Below, in pieces: positions 39,001-48,000 of a stretch of DNA of 64,000 nucleotides. Numbering within the stretch: the first letter of the stretch is position 1; each line of letters opens with the position of its first letter. Position numbers: made by a program. Origin of the DNA: an uncultured delta proteobacterium (GTDB lineage: Bacteria; Myxococcota_A; Polyangia; Palsa-1104); assembly GCA_963785725.1 (NCBI GenBank), contig CAWAWS010000005.1, positions 1 through 64,000 on the forward strand, written 5' to 3'.

Positions 39001-42000
39001 CCGAGCTGCTCCTCGGCAGTGTCGCCCACGCGGTGATCACGACCGCCGGGTGCCCCGTCGTCACGCTCGGCGAAGCGGCGACGCGCGGCACGCGCTGATG
39101 CGCCTCGTCGACGCCGAGGAAGCGATCGCGCTCGCGGTGTCCTCGGGCCGGCAGCTGTTCGTGCAAGGTGGCGCCGCGACGCCGTCGCTGCTGCTGGCGG
39201 CGCTGGCGGCTCGCGGGCCGACGCTCGACGGCGTCGGGGTCGTGCATCTGCACTGCGAAGGCGCCGCGCCCCATCTCGCACCCGAGCTGGCCGGCCACCT
39301 GCGCCATCGCGCGCTCTTCGTCGGCGCCAATGCACGCGCGGCGGTCGCCGAAGGACGCGCGGACTACATTCCCGTCTTCCTCTCCGACATTCCGCGGCTG
39401 TTCGCGCGGCGCCAGCTGCGCATCGACGTCGCGCTCGTCAACGTCTCGCCGCCCGACGCGCACGGCTACTGCACGCTCGGCCCGTCGGTCGACGTCACGA
39501 TGGCGGCCATCGAAGCCGCCGACGTCGTCGTCGCGCAGATCAACAGCGGTCTGCCGCGCGTCCTCGGCGACGGCATTCTCCACGTCGACGACATCGACTT
39601 CGGCGTCGCCTGCGCCATACCACCCTACGTTAGTGCCGTGCACGAGGTTGGCGACGTCGAGCGCCGCATCGGTCAGCACGTGGCCGAGCTCGTGCCCGAC
39701 GGCGCGACGCTGCAGCTCGGGATCGGCGGGCTGCCGGGCGCGATCTGCGCTGCGCTCGCGGACAAGCGCCACCTCGGCATCCACAGCGAGCTGTTCTCCG
39801 ACGGCGTCGTCGACCTGGTGGAGCGCGGCGTCGTCGACGGCGCCGCCAAGGAGCTCGATCGCGGCAAGATCGTCGCCGCCTTCGTCGTCGGCAGTCCGCG
39901 CGTCTATCGCTTCATCGACGACAACCCGATGGTCGAGCTGCGGCGCGCTGACTACACCAACGATCCGGGCGTCATTCGCCGGTTCCGCAAGATGGTCGCC
40001 GTCAACAGCGCCATCGAGGTCGACTTGACGGGCCAGGTGTGCGCCGACTCGATCGGCGCGCGCATCTACAGCGGCGTCGGCGGCCAAGTCGACTTCTTGC
40101 GCGGGGCGGCGCTGGCCGACGAAGGCCGCGCCATCGTCGCGCTGCCCGCCTGCGCCGCCGGCGGACGCCTCTCGCGCATCGCGGCCGAGCTGCAGCCGGC
40201 CGCCGGCGTCGTCACGACGCGCGCGCACGTCCATACCGTCGTGACCGAATACGGGGTCGCCGAGCTGCACGGCCGGGCCATCGGCGAGCGCGCGCGGTCG
40301 CTCATCGCCATCGCGGCGCCGCAGTTCCGGGAGGCGCTCACGGCCGAGGCCCGGCGGCGTCACTACCTCTGATCGAACGACGCGCGGCGCGTCGACGACC
40401 GATTCGTGACGGCGCAGTGTTTGCGGCCCGAATCGGGCTCACGACTCATCGACGCAAGCCTTGCGCGCGATCGGGGTCGAACCGTGCCTTTGGCGCTGGT
40501 CCGTAGGTTGCTGAGGCACACCGCATGCGAAGCCGCCCAATCCTCCTCGCGCTGTGTGTGGCTCTCGGCTGCGAAGGTCCGCGCGGGCCGGCGGGAGCGA
40601 CGGGTCCAGCCGGTGCCACCGGTCCGACCGGCGACGCGGGAGCGCCCGGCGCGACGGGTCCGAGCGGCGACGCCGGCACCAACGGCTGCCCCGGCCTCGA
40701 GCCGGGCGCGACCGTCGGCCTGAACGCCGTCGTCGACCTCTCGACTCCGGCCAACGGCAGCTTCTTCGTCGTCGGTGAACGCGCCAAGGTCACGATTCAC
40801 TTCACCAACGGCTGCGGGCAGACCTTGCGGCCGAGCGACCTCGGGACGGCGAGCCTGTATCTGTCGGGACCGCGGCTCGGCTCGCTGACGACGACGGCGG
40901 CCAAGCTGCTCAACTGCGTCACCGATCGCAGCGCGACCGACGGCCAGCACCACTACATCAACCTGCGCAGCCCGAGCTACGCCGATCCGTCGCAAGCCAA
41001 CTTGAGCAGCGCCGCCGACGGCACGCTGACCTACACCTTGGCGCCCGTCAGCGACGAGGCCGCCGGCACGTACACGCTCGGCGTCTGGGCCAAGAGCACC
41101 GACGACAAAGACCAGCTGTTCCCGACGCTCGACTTGCAAATCGGCAACGCCACCGCCGAAACCTTTGCCAGCGGTCCGAGCGCGACGTCGACCTGCTACT
41201 CGTGCCACCGCGGCGCGCAGTCCGGCAAGTCTTATCAGGCGCACATCATCCCCGGCTTCTCGCCCGAGGGAAACTACGCGCTCGACGCCACGCCCATCGC
41301 CACCTGCAAGCTCTGCCACAACCTCGACGGCTACAGCGCCAATCCCACCGTGCGCAAGGTCCACGGCGCACATCGCGGTGCCAACCAGCTGGCGCCCGGC
41401 GTCGCTCACCCCGAGTACGGGCTCGCCGCCGATCCGACGCTGGCCGAGCTCACCGACGTCACGTTCCCGTCGATGCCGGGCGCCGAGAACGACTGCGGCA
41501 AGTGCCACGTCGACGCGCGCTGGAAGACGGCGACGCGGCTCGCCTGCGGCACCTGCCACGACAACCTCTTCTTCGACACCGGCACGCTGACGCCGCCGCG
41601 CACGTTCGGCCCGCCTCCCGCCGGCGCGTGCACGTCGGACGCCGCCTGCGGCGTCTTCGGCGACTTCGCGACCTGCGATTTGCCGTCGGGGAGCTGCTTG
41701 CGCAAGACGCACCCGCCGCAGGCCGACGACGCCCAATGCAGCGTCTGCCACACCCCCGACCCGCCGGGGCTGGCAGCGGTCTCAGCGGTGCACGCGATCC
41801 TGCCGGTCACGGCGAACCCGGGCCTCACGCTGAGCAACGTCACGCTGAGCGGCGCCAGCGGCAGCGGCGGCGCGTTCATTGCCGGCACCGACACGCCGGT
41901 CGTGACCTTCGCGCTCGTCGACGGAACCGGGACGGCCATCGCCACGCTCAAGTCGAGCTCGGTCTTCTCGGCCACCGCCATCGTGTCCGGCCCCACCGAC

Positions 42001-45000: not shown

Positions 45001-48000
45001 CGAGGTCGGCGGCAACCTCTATTGGCGCCCGCTGTCGCGCTTGCGCATCGAGGGCGACTATCACGCCATCCTCGACGACGACGGCTTCGGGCAGCGCGGC
45101 GGCGCGCGCGTCGTCGGCACCTTGGGCGCGGCCTTCACGACGACGCTCACCGCCGAGACGCGCGTGCTGCGCCTCGCCACCGGCGACGGCTACGTGCAGG
45201 GTCGGCTCTACGCCATCCAGCGGCTGTCGACGCGGCTCGTCGGGACGCTCGATCTCGACGCCTACTCGCTCGAGAAGCCGATCAACGGCCAGACCTTCTC
45301 GTTCACCAGCGCGGCCACGCTCGGCTGGGACTTCGCGCCCGGCTGGCGCACGGTGCTGACCGCGATCGCCGACTCGACGCCGCAGGTCGAGCGCCGCTTC
45401 GAGTGCATGGCCAAGGTCGTCTACAACGCCGTCTACCACGTGCGGCGGGTGATTCAGTGAGCGGCGCGCGCGGCTTTGTCCTCGTCGTCGCTTGTGCCGT
45501 CGGCGCCGCCGCCTGTGCGCCGTGGCTGACGATTCGGCTGCCGTACAAAGCCGATCACCTCAAGGTGCCGCACGGGCTGCACGCGCAAGGCAAGGTCGAG
45601 TGCATCGCCTGCCACGACGAGCTCTACGACGCCAAGAACCTCGAGCAGCGCGTGCTGCCCGCCGAGGCCAAGTGCCTCGAGTGCCACCGCGAGCAGAAGG
45701 CCAACGGCCAGTGCGGCTTCTGCCACACCGACGTGACGCGCGCCCGAGCGTGGCCGGCGCGCGAGCCGACGCTGCGCATGTCGCACGCCGAGCACATCGA
45801 TCGAGTCAAGGAGGACTGCCATGTCTGCCACAAGACGCTGCCCAATCCGCTGCGCGGCACCGACGGGACGCCGCCCATGAGCGCCTGCCTCTCGTGTCAC
45901 GAGCATCAACAGGAGTACGACGAGGGCCGCTGCTCTCGCTGCCACATCGACTTGACGCGCTATCCGCTCAAGCCCGTGTCGCTGTTCTCGCACCAAGGCA
46001 ACTTCGTGCGCGAGCACGGCCGCTCGGCGCGCGCCGCGGCCGACACGTGCGCCCAGTGCCACGAGCAGACCTTCTGCAGCGACTGCCACGCGCGCACCGT
46101 GTCGATGCCGATCGAGCAGAAGCTGCCCGAGCGCGTCGACGCCGACTTCATCCATCGCAACGACTTCATCGACCGTCATGTCGTCGAAGCGAAGGCCGAT
46201 CCGGCGTCGTGCCGGCGCTGCCACGGCTCGACCTTCTGCGACGACTGCCATCGCGCGCAGAACCTGACGCCGCAAGCGGCCAACCCGCGCGATCCGCACC
46301 CGGCCGGCTGGTCGTTCCCGGGCGCGGCGCAGTTCCACGGCACCGAGGCGCGGCGCGACATCAACCAGTGCGCCGCCTGCCACGATCAGGGCGCGCGCTC
46401 CATCTGCGTCGACTGCCATAAGGTCGGCGGCATCGGCGGCGATCCGCATCCGGCCGGCTGGTCGGCGCGCCACGGCCGTAACGAGATCGCGCGCAGCTCG
46501 ATGTGCCTCGCGTGCCACTCGTGAGCCTCGTCGGCCTCGGCATCGTCGCCGCGCTCTTGCTGCTCTTGCCGCTCGTCGTGCGGCCCTCGTTGACGCTGCG
46601 CAGGGTCGGGCGCGTCTTCGCTTTCGTCGCCATCGTCGTCGTGCCGGTGGCGGTGGGCTTCGGCGGCCTCAGCGAGCACATCGAGCACTCCAAGACGACC
46701 GCCTTTTGCCTCTCGTGCCACGTGATGGAGCCGTACGGACGGAGCTTTCACGTCGACGACCTGGACCATCTACGGCGCAGCACTGGCAATACAGCCGCGT
46801 GCCGCGCGAGACCGCCTGCTTTACCTGCCACACCAACTACACGCTTTACGGCGACTACAAAGCCAAGCTGCGCGGGCTGCATCACGTCTGGGTGCAGTAC
46901 CTCGGAACCATCCCGAAGACGCTCGCGCTGTACACCCCGTACGACAATCGCGAGTGCCTGCATTGCCACGACGGCGCGCGCTCGTTCGTCGAGGCGATCC
47001 CGCACAAGAGCTGAGCTCGCCGCCATCCTCGCCAACCGCAAGTCGTGCGTGGCGAGCGGCTGCCACGCCACCGTGCACGACGTCGCGCACGTCGACGCGC
47101 TCCCGAAGTGGCCCAAGGAGAATCCATGAGCGACCGCGCGGGAGCGACTGCGAGCGTCCGGCCCGTTGCGCCGGCGGATCGACCGTCCGGCTCGTTGACC
47201 GCCGAAAGAGGTCATACGAGCGACGCGAAGCTGGAGCGGCGGCTACAACTGTCGGCCGCGCTGGTCATGCTCGGGCTCGTCGTCGAGCTGGTCAGCCTGC
47301 GCTGGCATCACCCGACGGCGTTCGTCCTGTTCGTGCTCGTCGGCGGCCTGGCCATGGCGGCCGGCATCTTGCTGTTCTCGTACTCAATCGTTTCCCGAGG
47401 AGGATGACCATGCGTTGGATCTTCGTGATGGCGCTCGTGCCGAGCTTGGCGTTTGCAGACGGCAACCCGCAGATCGACCGGCTGTGGCGCGCCAAGTGCG
47501 CCTCGTGCCACGGCGCCGATGGCAAGGCGCAGACCGAGCAGGGCAAGAAGATGGCGATCGGCGACTTGTCGACCGCGGCCGCGCAGGCAAAAGTCACCGA
47601 CGCGCAGATCAAGGCGGCGATCAGCGACGGCGTCAATCGCGACCAAAACGGCGTGCACCAGGAGATGGAAGGCTACAAGGCCAAGCTGAAGCCGGACCAG
47701 ATCGACGGTCTGGTCACGTACGTGCGGGCGCTCAAGAAGTAGCCGCGAACGACCGCGCACGCCTTGCCGCCGCCGGCGGCGCCGCCGCAAATCCTGCGCG
47801 AGTCGCGCGGAGGCGACCGCGCCGTCGCGGCTGCGGCTTTCGGCACGCCTCCTGCTCTGAGCCGAGATGGAGGCCTCATGCAGATCGAGAGCGTCATGAC
47901 GCGCAACGTTCACTTCTGCCGCAAGGACGACAGCCTCGACGCTGCCGCGCGCGTGATGTGGGACGCCGATTGCGGCTGCCTTCCGGTGGTCGACCACTGC

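Follow-up and report, generated by a model that had tools for sequence, protein, structure and literature searches.

A seven-gene porin-cytochrome operon of a soil myxobacterium encodes a decahaem lipoprotein with a collagen-like tether

What purpose could a collagen-like sequence serve when it is placed between the lipid anchor and the redox head of a multihaem cytochrome? The question is raised by a gene cluster in the 64,000-nucleotide stretch of DNA analysed here (the window; forward strand of contig CAWAWS010000005.1), which comes from the 8.9 Mb genome of a soil myxobacterium. The cluster, at 40525–47742, is a single tightly coupled operon of seven genes, all on the + strand, with spacings between consecutive genes of 0, −11, −4, −22, −4 and −4 bases, the last measured with 47404 as the start of the cytochrome c gene. 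An earlier note on this DNA had ended the cluster at 46524, which is too early, because three further overlapping genes, up to 47742, belong to the operon. A gene 152 bases upstream encodes an acetyl-CoA hydrolase/transferase, which fits only loosely with acetate oxidation.

The first gene, g54 (40525–43020, 831 aa), encodes a decahaem lipoprotein of the MtrC/OmcA type, as had been proposed. It holds ten CxxCH sites in a 5+5 layout and scores 106.8 bits against PF22113 (Mtrc-MtrF_II-IV_dom, cut-off 30) and 167.4 bits against TIGR03507, under the cut-off of 209.3 for that model. Profile matches in the PDB include MtrF (1.9e-26), OmcA (5e-18) and S. baltica MtrC (8e-12), and the best 15 Foldseek matches of the AlphaFold2 (AF2) model (pLDDT 90.7) are all MtrC, OmcA, UndA or MtrF, with E-values of 5.8e-17 to 2.5e-13. 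A signal peptide and lipobox occupy residues 1–16 (40525–40572); the N-terminus reads MRSRPILLALCVALGC, then E, after which Gly recurs in every third position, G18 through G57. All 96 aligned homologues share the lipobox cysteine, Cys16, which is probably lipidated, and we expect g54 to be exposed at the cell surface and loaded with haem.

The collagen-like run itself consists of 14 unbroken Gly-X-Y triplets (residues 18–59, 40576–40701). The earlier note had recognised this run behind the lipobox cysteine but counted 13 triplets, where a recount from G18 to G57 gives 14; both domains that it listed for g54 score above their cut-offs, with Pfam Collagen at 29.3 bits (cut-off 27.2, E 7.6e-7). 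Between G18 and G54, 13 of 13 Gly residues stand in one phase, a pattern equalled by none of 100000 shuffles of the same stretch, and the run is the only one of collagen type in the 8.9 Mb genome. Residues 16–58 give weak NCBIfam matches to SclA, SclB and Lcl models, and the PDB profile search with g54 also matches BclA and collagen peptides. Pro is found at 36% of X and 20% of Y positions (1322 triplets). The spacing from the lipobox cysteine to the closing cysteine is a multiple of three in 80 of 98 homologues, chance being one third. A point against the stalk is that the run before the closing cysteine is imperfect in 44 of the 98, some of these being truly interrupted and some mis-anchored by our script. 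Cys55, beside the end of the run in g54, is conserved jointly with Cys97. The single phase of the Gly residues and the spacing in multiples of three support the view that the run is under a constraint that, as far as is known, only a triple helix would impose. We found no description of a collagen-like tether of MtrC/OmcA-type cytochromes in the literature.

Repeating the homologue search for g54 again gave 263 proteins at E<=1e-3. Among the best 120 of the 263, 101 carry 5 to 24 consecutive triplets in their first 200 residues, in line with the 97 of 120 counted before in the first 150; the Anaeromyxobacter oryzae homologue, like g54, has 14. The tether is present in 40 of 49 Myxococcota-type genes, in 4 of 8 Chloroflexota genes and in none of 22 Verrucomicrobiota/Planctomycetota genes, and a Pro-rich or Cys-rich spacer stands in its place in P0069, P0096, P0122, L012, L026 and L030. 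Chloroflexota relatives, which are taken to lack an outer membrane, combine a lipobox with as many as 22 triplets, and the loci examined show no barrel gene near them. Deposited sequences of Shewanella MtrF and S. baltica MtrC show five triplets directly after the lipidated cysteine. Judged from this distribution, the collagen tether is a family-wide trait and not peculiar to the host lineage. The new life style that the earlier note had read into the cluster is overstated: of 41 related genomes searched, 36 have the family, which also occurs in Anaeromyxobacter, a genus that a passage of PMC4245776 counts among the dissimilatory Fe(III) reducers, and the host genome retains two haem-copper oxidase genes.

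Complex prediction, for which the earlier note had had no tool, was run here on three copies of g54 and passed its controls, with ipSAE values of 0.45, 0.45 and 0.35 and a best control of 0.14. The runs shared at least 90% of their contacts, with a partner pLDDT of at least 83. When the tool was calibrated, 20 of the 30 solved pairs attained the mark, as did 1 of the 23 single chains; our run departs from that setting by its custom alignment and its three copies. The predicted interface (residues 17–57, 17–58 and 17–59) falls exactly on the run, and i/i+1 contacts give it a one-residue stagger, such that in the model residues 17–59 zip into a staggered triple helix. No contact was predicted outside residues 17–59, heads included, and therefore no separate trimerisation domain is seen. 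The pass may be an echo of solved collagen helices known to the model. Fourteen triplets of moderate imino content would be marginal as a free collagen peptide, and we know of no hydroxyproline system in the host. In synthetic peptide amphiphiles, according to a review (PMC4237179), the triple helices of collagen-model peptides gain stability from lipid tails. A trimeric stalk of ~12 nm (42 residues × 0.286 nm) is plausible, and we lean slightly towards it.

Could the run serve the same conduit as a single chain, that is, as an extended tether, polyproline-II-like or flexible, that forms no homotrimer and owes its Gly periodicity to descent or to a role in export or in packing against lipopolysaccharide? 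A periodic tether is not always a homotrimer, because Shewanella MtrF and S. baltica MtrC have only five triplets, yet Shewanella MtrABC is described as a 1:1:1 complex in the cited part of PMC3279761; a single-chain tether also agrees with the pLDDT below 50 of residues 1–51 in the AF2 monomer model of g54, with the lack of head–head contacts in the three-copy prediction and with the Pro-rich or Cys-rich spacers of some homologues. A flexible linker, however, could do without a Gly in each triplet. The phase is nonetheless held over 5–24 triplets, and tether length shifts by whole triplets while the X and Y residues vary freely; the controls passed by the three-copy model likewise speak against a single chain, which we consider a serious possibility but doubt.

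The partners of g54 place it in an electron conduit. The adjoining gene, g55 (43021–44205, 394 aa), encodes an OmcB-like lipoprotein with 12 haem sites (10 CxxCH and 2 CxxxxCH), a TIGR01904 CxxxxCH/CxxCH domain (68.4 bits, cut-off 27) and a lipobox kept in close relatives. The product of g56 (44195–45460, 421 aa) lacks haem sites and matches no family in Pfam or NCBIfam, and its 139 homologues are unnamed; the outer-membrane β-barrel previously read by eye is borne out by an AF2 model with 22 strands (pLDDT 90.6), which Foldseek matches to usher pores and Occ porins. Overlapping the g56 stop, a probable GTG start at 45457 opens g57 (45457–46524, 355 aa), a periplasm-side cytochrome with 13 CxxCH sites, a number found in 24 of 24 homologues read from the loci. 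All haem-site counts given earlier for the four genes were reproduced. Homologues of g56 and g57 both lie beside a g54 homologue in 24 of 77 loci; four further loci have g56 without a g57 match, three of them at a contig end, and all loci with g56 (24 + 4) are Myxococcota-type records. The pair also stands side by side in A. oryzae and in two Anaeromyxobacter MAGs, and it matches the two-gene pcc cluster of Anaeromyxobacter, described in a passage of PMC4245776 as a porin-like gene with a periplasmic cytochrome of 338–344 aa and 12–14 haem motifs. The barrel model, the TIGR01904 domain, this adjacency and the published cluster support the earlier proposal that g54–g57 form a porin-cytochrome conduit.

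Three further genes follow. The first (46503–47129), for an NrfH/NapC/NirT-like membrane tetrahaem quinol dehydrogenase, lies in three frame pieces, with breaks near 46771 and 47012. A relative's contig carries an extra base after 46771 and lacks one at 47012, and the gene is broken here by two compensating 1-base indels, a point against the path proposed below; an intact homologue in L001 has NrfH, TorC and NapC as its best models, with scores under the cut-offs. A small protein of 93 aa (47126–47407), with two membrane spans assigned by eye, has tblastn matches beside the NrfH-like gene in seven loci (L001, L002, L007, L015, L018, L019 and L022). The last gene (47404–47742) encodes a monohaem class-I cytochrome c (PF00034/PF13442) with a signal peptide, likely a periplasmic carrier, and has homologues in most cluster-bearing loci. 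L001 and L002 share this gene order, the NrfH-like and cytochrome c genes included.

The best explanation, which we rate at somewhat better than even, is that the operon encodes a complete quinol-to-exterior electron path with g54 on a trimeric collagen stalk. With the carrier order read from the protein families and the flow presumed outward, the NrfH/NapC-like protein and its small membrane partner would draw electrons from quinol, which would cross the periplasm via the monohaem cytochrome c, the 13-haem g57 or both; g57 would sit in the ~22-strand barrel g56 as an Anaeromyxobacter-type Pcc unit, and OmcB-like g55 and g54 would be the acceptors outside. Three g54 chains would most likely zip their 14 triplets into a collagen triple helix of ~12 nm, its register set by three membrane-embedded lipid anchors and its far end pinned to domain I by the Cys55–Cys97 pair, to give a rigid rod, able to swivel where it meets the membrane, that bears three decahaem heads with 30 haems in all. 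If this is true, the rod lifts the heads beyond the lipopolysaccharide layer, within reach of minerals or humics. A head 12 nm off the membrane could not receive electrons directly, haem to haem, from a partner in the barrel; tilting of the rod, or g55, would have to bridge the gap.

Direction is not given by sequence, and the flow could instead be inward, as proposed for Mto/Pio-type clusters: Fe(II), reduced humics or a partner cell would supply the electrons, and the monohaem cytochrome c would pass them on to an oxidase or the quinone pool. The pairing of a monohaem class-I cytochrome c with a CymA/NrfH-like protein, which recurs in MtoD/CymA as described in part of PMC4245776, and the two haem-copper oxidase genes would suit such a flow; we think it unlikely, given that MtrC/OmcA-type surface decahaems and OmcB-type cytochromes are characterised as reductases, that Anaeromyxobacter is a listed Fe(III) reducer and that the upstream acetyl-CoA hydrolase/transferase gene fits, loosely, with acetate oxidation. 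Least probable is an inner-membrane g54 whose stalk crosses part of the periplasm and whose head is a tethered carrier from the quinol dehydrogenase to the Pcc unit: the acidic Glu after the lipidated cysteine in most close homologues and the same design in Chloroflexota, which would need a cytoplasmic-membrane anchor and has no barrel gene nearby, point that way, but the Lys at +2 given in a passage of PMC3222651 as the M. xanthus inner-membrane retention signal is absent from g54, the characterised members of the fold are all extracellular, and the g54 gene precedes, on the same transcript, those of a second outer lipoprotein cytochrome and a barrel.

Set against known systems, the cluster is a real electron conduit with features of several. 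Like Shewanella MtrC, OmcA, MtrF and UndA (PDB 6qyc, 4lmh, 3pmq, 3ucp), g54 has ten CxxCH sites (5+5), the four-domain fold (barrel, pentahaem, barrel, pentahaem) and an N-terminal lipobox with a tether straight after the lipidated cysteine, here of 14 triplets versus 5 in MtrF and S. baltica MtrC; identity to the Shewanella structures is just 13–16% in structural alignments, and g54 stays under the TIGR03507 cut-off. The partner barrel is g56, of no named family, and not MtrB, and 13-haem and 12-site cytochromes replace MtrA, which is missing here. As in the Anaeromyxobacter Pcc unit, the barrel gene adjoins that of a periplasmic cytochrome, and as in Geobacter OmaB-OmbB-OmcB there is a many-haem lipoprotein, g55, with the Geobacter CxxxxCH/CxxCH domain. 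Anaeromyxobacter pcc clusters are described in the cited part of Shi et al. 2014 (PMC4245776) as lacking an outer-membrane cytochrome, whereas the host operon encodes two, and unlike the Pcc clusters of Geobacter and Anaeromyxobacter it is linked to a quinol dehydrogenase and a monohaem carrier. It is a hybrid of two model systems, because its outer-membrane cytochromes include the Shewanella MtrC/OmcA fold. The tether resembles the hydroxyproline-free Gly-X-Y runs of Scl1/Scl2 (Streptococcus), BclA (Bacillus) and Lcl (Legionella), which are rich in Pro, Ala and Thr and hold a globular head at a distance from the cell. In contrast to these, the g54 run is much shorter, no separate trimerising head domain was detected in its three-copy model, its anchor is an N-terminal lipid right at the helix start instead of LPXTG or a basal layer, and its head is a redox enzyme and not an adhesin. 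In having an N-terminal lipid on a short Gly-X-Y peptide, it is like the synthetic collagen peptide amphiphiles reviewed in PMC4237179; those are man-made, and g54 would be their natural lipoprotein counterpart.

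The protein g54 (40525–43020, + strand; 831 aa, ten CxxCH) is assigned by its sequence and predicted structure to the MtrC/OmcA-type decahaem cytochromes, with a predicted lipoprotein anchor. Five of its haem motifs lie at residues 224–405 and five at 595–800, and all ten are invariant in 96 aligned homologues (alignment A1). The protein scores 106.8 bits against the Pfam domain Mtrc-MtrF_II-IV_dom (PF22113; cut-off 30) and 167.4 bits against the NCBIfam OmcA/MtrC family TIGR03507, below the strict cut-off of 209.3. A phmmer search of the PDB sequences with g54 alone as query found zero chains, so a profile built from A1 was needed; this matched MtrF (1.9e-26), OmcA (5e-18), S. 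baltica MtrC (8e-12) and UndA (2.9e-6). The AlphaFold2 model of g54 (pLDDT 90.7, pTM 0.83), in which pLDDT falls below 50 only at residues 1–5, 13–25 and 34–51, has the layout barrel, pentahaem, barrel, pentahaem, i.e. the four-domain fold of solved members. The best 15 Foldseek matches of this model in the PDB are all MtrC, OmcA, UndA or MtrF (E 5.8e-17 to 2.5e-13; target-normalised TM 0.44–0.55).

The signal peptide of g54 ends in ALGC, and Cys16 is invariant in 96/96 aligned homologues. The mature N-terminus carries Glu at +2, Pro at +7 and Ala at +8. In M. xanthus, according to a passage of PMC3222651, Lys at +2 marks inner-membrane lipoproteins and Ala at +7 is a matrix signal; by contrast with the former, +2 Lys is absent from g54, and the match to the latter is inexact because Pro sits at +7 and Ala at +8.

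Glu comes next after the signal peptide and Cys16, and from G18 to G57 each third residue is Gly, making 14 triplets. All 13 Gly from G18 to G54 share one phase, a phase score reached by 0 of 100000 shuffles, and g54 scores 29.3 bits against Pfam Collagen (PF01391), narrowly above the cut-off of 27.2. Triplets were counted within the first 200 residues of the 120 matches listed out of 263 homologous proteins: 101 carry 5 to 24 consecutive triplets, four carry 3 or 4 and 15 carry none. Twelve of these 15 are, by eye, N-terminally cut; the other three (P0069, P0096 and P0122) are full-length proteins with another spacer instead of the run. A script located the lipobox Cys and the Cys that follows it in 98 homologues. 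These two residues lie a multiple of three apart in 80 of them, the remainder modulo 3 being 2 in 13 others and 1 in 5, and Gly occupies every third place along the whole spacing in 54. The remaining 44 include some with a short non-collagen tail or interruption, and about nine that are misanchored as the protein is cut. The X and Y positions vary freely (over 1322 triplets, Pro makes up 36% of X and 20% of Y, with Ala at 23% and Thr at 13% of Y). To our knowledge, the triple helix is the sole structure known to require Gly at each third residue, and the Gly periodicity is for this reason the strongest evidence for a triple helix. These counts indicate that the collagen-like run of g54 is real and constrained.

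Across all frames of the 8.9 Mb genome, 14 Gly-X-Y runs were found; the only Pro-rich run of at least 7 triplets in a well-coding frame is that of g54, and three other listed runs are Gly/Ser/Thr linkers. A lineage-wide use of collagen linkers on lipoproteins was rejected, g54 holding the sole such run in the genome.

The compatibility of the run with a helix is supported by a three-copy model of residues 17–212 (the run plus domain I), built with A1. Its ipSAE values of 0.45, 0.45 and 0.35, against 0.14 for the best of three controls, express model confidence and are not a measurement; in the calibration of the tool, which differs in copy number and alignment, the mark was reached by 20/30 solved pairs and 1/23 single chains. 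Model runs agreed in at least 90% of contacts, with partner pLDDT of at least 83. The confident interface comprises residues 17–57, 17–58 and 17–59 of the three copies, and its closest pairs join residue i to i, i+1 or i+3, matching the collagen-helix stagger of one residue. Domain I makes no contacts in this three-copy model of residues 17–212, none occur outside residues 17–59, and no trimerising element was found there. Collagen helices are abundant in the PDB, and a pass with this tool can arise from likeness to solved complexes; we take the model as support for a helix-competent sequence, not for the existence of a trimer.

Cys55, which closes the run, is conserved in 92/96 aligned homologues and Cys97 in 95/96, and both are also kept in P0069, P0096 and P0122. 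A Cys55 knot between chains was rejected as the main reading, as the residue is conserved jointly with Cys97 even where there is no run. Because the pair is co-conserved, including in these run-less homologues, a Cys55–Cys97 disulfide within domain I, which would pin the end of the helix to the head, is more likely.

Grouping 77 genome loci with a g54 homologue by record titles, we observed at least five triplets in 40/49 readable Myxococcota-type genes, in 4/8 Chloroflexota genes (14 to 22 triplets, after the lipobox) and in 0/22 genes from Verrucomicrobiota, Planctomycetota and others. The Verrucomicrobiota/Planctomycetota homologues (loci L055–L077) have no lipobox and carry, after an ordinary signal peptide, a conserved, unrelated N-terminal domain of ~100 aa; homologues of the operon proteins g55, g56 and g57 are absent within 10 kb of them. 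As deposited in the PDB, Shewanella MtrF (3pmq_A) and S. baltica MtrC (6r2q_C) have five Gly-X-Y triplets directly after the lipobox Cys-Gly. Since these proteins also carry it, the tether is a trait of the family, with a long form in Myxococcota and Chloroflexota and a short one in Shewanella. A cultured carrier exists in Anaeromyxobacter oryzae, whose homologue has 14 triplets, which makes the stalk hypothesis directly testable.

In some Anaeromyxobacter-type paralogues (L012, L026, L030 and P0122), the place of the run between the lipobox and domain I is taken by a repeated module of ~45 residues that is Cys-rich and Gly/Asp-rich; in P0122 it corresponds to a protein carrying PF23657. The head is the same in these paralogues, but its stalk is of another kind. 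The Chloroflexota loci L045, L052, L054 and L069 combine a lipobox and 14–22 triplets with no barrel gene nearby. If Chloroflexota cells lack an outer membrane, as taken here, the stalk would start at the cytoplasmic membrane and would have to bring the head out across the wall.

The gene for g54 heads seven abutting or overlapping genes on the + strand, from 40525 to 47742, with successive spacings of 0, −11, −4, −22, −4 and −4 bases (taking the cytochrome c start as 47404). A 152-base gap precedes them, and before it lies an acetyl-CoA hydrolase/transferase gene. In all seven, G+C at the third codon position is high, as it is in real genes of this genome (70% G+C). The second gene, g55 (43021–44205, +), encodes 394 aa with ten CxxCH and two CxxxxCH; the third, g56 (44195–45460, +), encodes 421 aa with no haem sites; and the fourth, g57 (+), with a likely GTG start at 45457 that gives a 4-base overlap with the g56 stop, encodes 355 aa with 13 CxxCH. 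The haem-site counts of the earlier note for these four proteins (10; 10+2; 0; 13) were reproduced, and the end it had set, at 46524, proved too early, as three further genes extend to 47742. These encode an NrfH/NapC/NirT-like membrane cytochrome (46503–47129, +), a 93-aa protein with two membrane spans judged by eye from its hydrophobic stretches (47126–47407, +; beside the NrfH-like gene in 7 loci), and a monohaem class-I cytochrome c with a signal peptide (47404–47742, +). By tblastn, g54, g55 and g56 are single-copy in the genome, and g57 has one relative, 29% identical, on contig C16. A search with 40400–47800 found no match among RNA datasets and two matching DNA runs of one study (shares of 0.07 and 0.06 of sampled words); these yielded contigs from relatives alone, informative solely for the two indels described below.

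The frame of the NrfH-like gene breaks near 46771 and 47012, and the gene aligns to its intact homologue at locus L001 as three pieces in two frames; in the middle piece, third-position G+C tracks the shifted frame. In the contig of a relative (~6% divergent), one C is added after 46771 and one base is missing at 47012, which puts the gene back into a single frame. The window therefore has two 1-base indels that compensate each other, with 241 bases between them. If translated in its present form, the gene would lack two of its haem sites. A P-type cation ATPase on the − strand (51211–53779) also seems split, with the N-terminal, E1-E2 and hydrolase domains in one ORF (51689–53779) and the C-terminal domain in an overlapping ORF in another frame (51211–52011), possibly through another assembly indel. 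Given this second apparent split nearby, an assembly error in the NrfH-like gene is as likely as a young pseudogene.

The partners of g54 point to a porin-cytochrome (Pcc) conduit. The AlphaFold2 model of g56 is all-beta, with 22 strands (pLDDT 90.6), and in the PDB its structure matches outer-membrane barrels, namely the FimD/PapC usher pores and the Occ porins (E down to 8.9e-11, TM 0.4–0.5). Nearly all of its 139 homologues are unnamed, and no MtrB-type family match was found in Pfam or NCBIfam. The g57 homologues read from the loci have exactly 13 CxxCH in 24/24 cases. After the signal peptide they show a lipobox-like Cys in Polyangia-type loci and an ordinary signal-peptidase site in Myxococcaceae-type loci, so that the periplasmic partner may be lipid-anchored in the former and soluble in the latter. 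We assign g55 as an OmcB-like, predicted lipoprotein with 12 sites: it scores 68.4 bits against TIGR01904, the Geobacter CxxxxCH/CxxCH domain (cut-off 27), and its lipobox is conserved among close relatives.

Homologues of both g56 and g57 lie beside a g54 homologue in 24/77 loci, and 4 further loci have g56 without a g57 match, three of them at a contig end. The gene order is collinear in loci L001 and L002 and rearranged in Myxococcaceae-type MAGs; in 28 loci (Chloroflexota, Verrucomicrobiota, Planctomycetota and unclassified records), no homologues of g55, g56 or g57 were found. In the portion of Shi et al. (2014; PMC4245776) that describes it, the Anaeromyxobacter pcc cluster consists of two genes, for a porin-like protein and a periplasmic cytochrome (338–344 aa, 12–14 haem motifs), and is without an outer-membrane cytochrome. 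Homologues of g56 (32–35% identity) and g57 (41–44%) are adjacent in A. oryzae and two Anaeromyxobacter MAGs, and in those three genomes the pair sits far from the MtrC-like gene. The gene content thus indicates that this Polyangia lineage joins a Pcc core with OmcB-like and MtrC/OmcA-like lipoproteins in one operon, and the conduit formed by g54–g57 is predicted to carry electrons through the outer membrane.

Judging by the protein families, electrons would pass from quinol to the NrfH-like protein and on to the monohaem cytochrome c and/or g57, then through the barrel g56 to g55 and g54, and finally to mineral or humic acceptors; sequence gives no direction. A CymA-like protein paired with a monohaem cytochrome is also reminiscent of the Mto-type oxidising clusters in the account given in part of PMC4245776. 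The genome retains two haem-copper oxidases.

With the collagen rise of 0.286 nm per residue, the 42-residue run would form a rod of about 12 nm, and those of the homologues rods of about 4 to 20 nm. N-terminal lipid tails stabilise synthetic collagen peptides, as a section of a review reports (PMC4237179), and we propose that the three acyl-Cys anchors would nucleate the helix in the same way. A head held 12 nm out could not accept electrons directly from a barrel-bound partner; the gap might be closed by the rod tilting on its lipid hinge, or by the 12-site g55 acting as a bridge. All g55 homologues read from the loci have 10–13 sites, while stalks range from 5 to 24 triplets.

Genes on either side of the operon encode a histidine kinase coupled to a protoglobin, two universal stress proteins and three CBS-pair proteins (31699–32931, −; 33818–34438, −; 47764–50630, +), which possibly serve to sense oxygen or redox state and to regulate the cluster. 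An iron transporter of the VIT1/CCC1 family (E 9e-51), whose gene (34955–35812, +) is found 5 kb upstream of the conduit, could handle Fe(II) from iron respiration.

The family of g54 and the type of conduit are already known; what appears undescribed is the long stalk of collagen type, the trimer that it likely forms and the operon as a hybrid of the Mtr and Pcc types. In the literature searched, outside which most subscription journals lie, we found no description of a collagen-like segment on a multihaem cytochrome; a passage of the PgcA paper mentions collagen as a comparison for Pro-rich repeats (PMC5732950).

Were a Gly-X-Y tether to trimerise its cytochrome throughout the family, membrane-embedded acyl chains would align three lipidated chains as a natural peptide amphiphile, the lipid-registered collagen helices would carry 30-haem bouquets, and rods of 4–20 nm would pivot between membrane conduit and minerals, with the five-triplet form holding together the long-known 1:2 MtrC:OmcA complex of Shewanella. 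We consider this extension unlikely. The 5-triplet tether of Shewanella cuts both ways, as it gives the run deep conservation yet speaks against an obligate homotrimer: MtrABC is a 1:1:1 complex in the relevant passage of PMC3279761, so a short tether, at least, does not enforce one. An excerpt of a review gives the MtrC:OmcA complex as 1:2, hence three chains; that the tethers hold it together is speculation. The conserved tether may bear on this unexplained three-chain assembly.

Models of extracellular electron transfer place surface cytochromes such as MtrC as single copies directly on the porin. A stiff three-chain stalk, if it exists, would alter the geometry, how many haems each site holds and how electrons cross at least 10 nm, and it would provide a natural way of presenting redox proteins at a fixed height. 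The operon also makes it likely that the widespread Myxococcota of soil and peat respire metals or humics. Unlike the MtrA/MtrB pair of Shewanella, the partners of g54 are of the Pcc type, with a predicted barrel, g56, of about 22 strands. The operon combines elements of both model systems, Shewanella and Geobacter, within a single unit.
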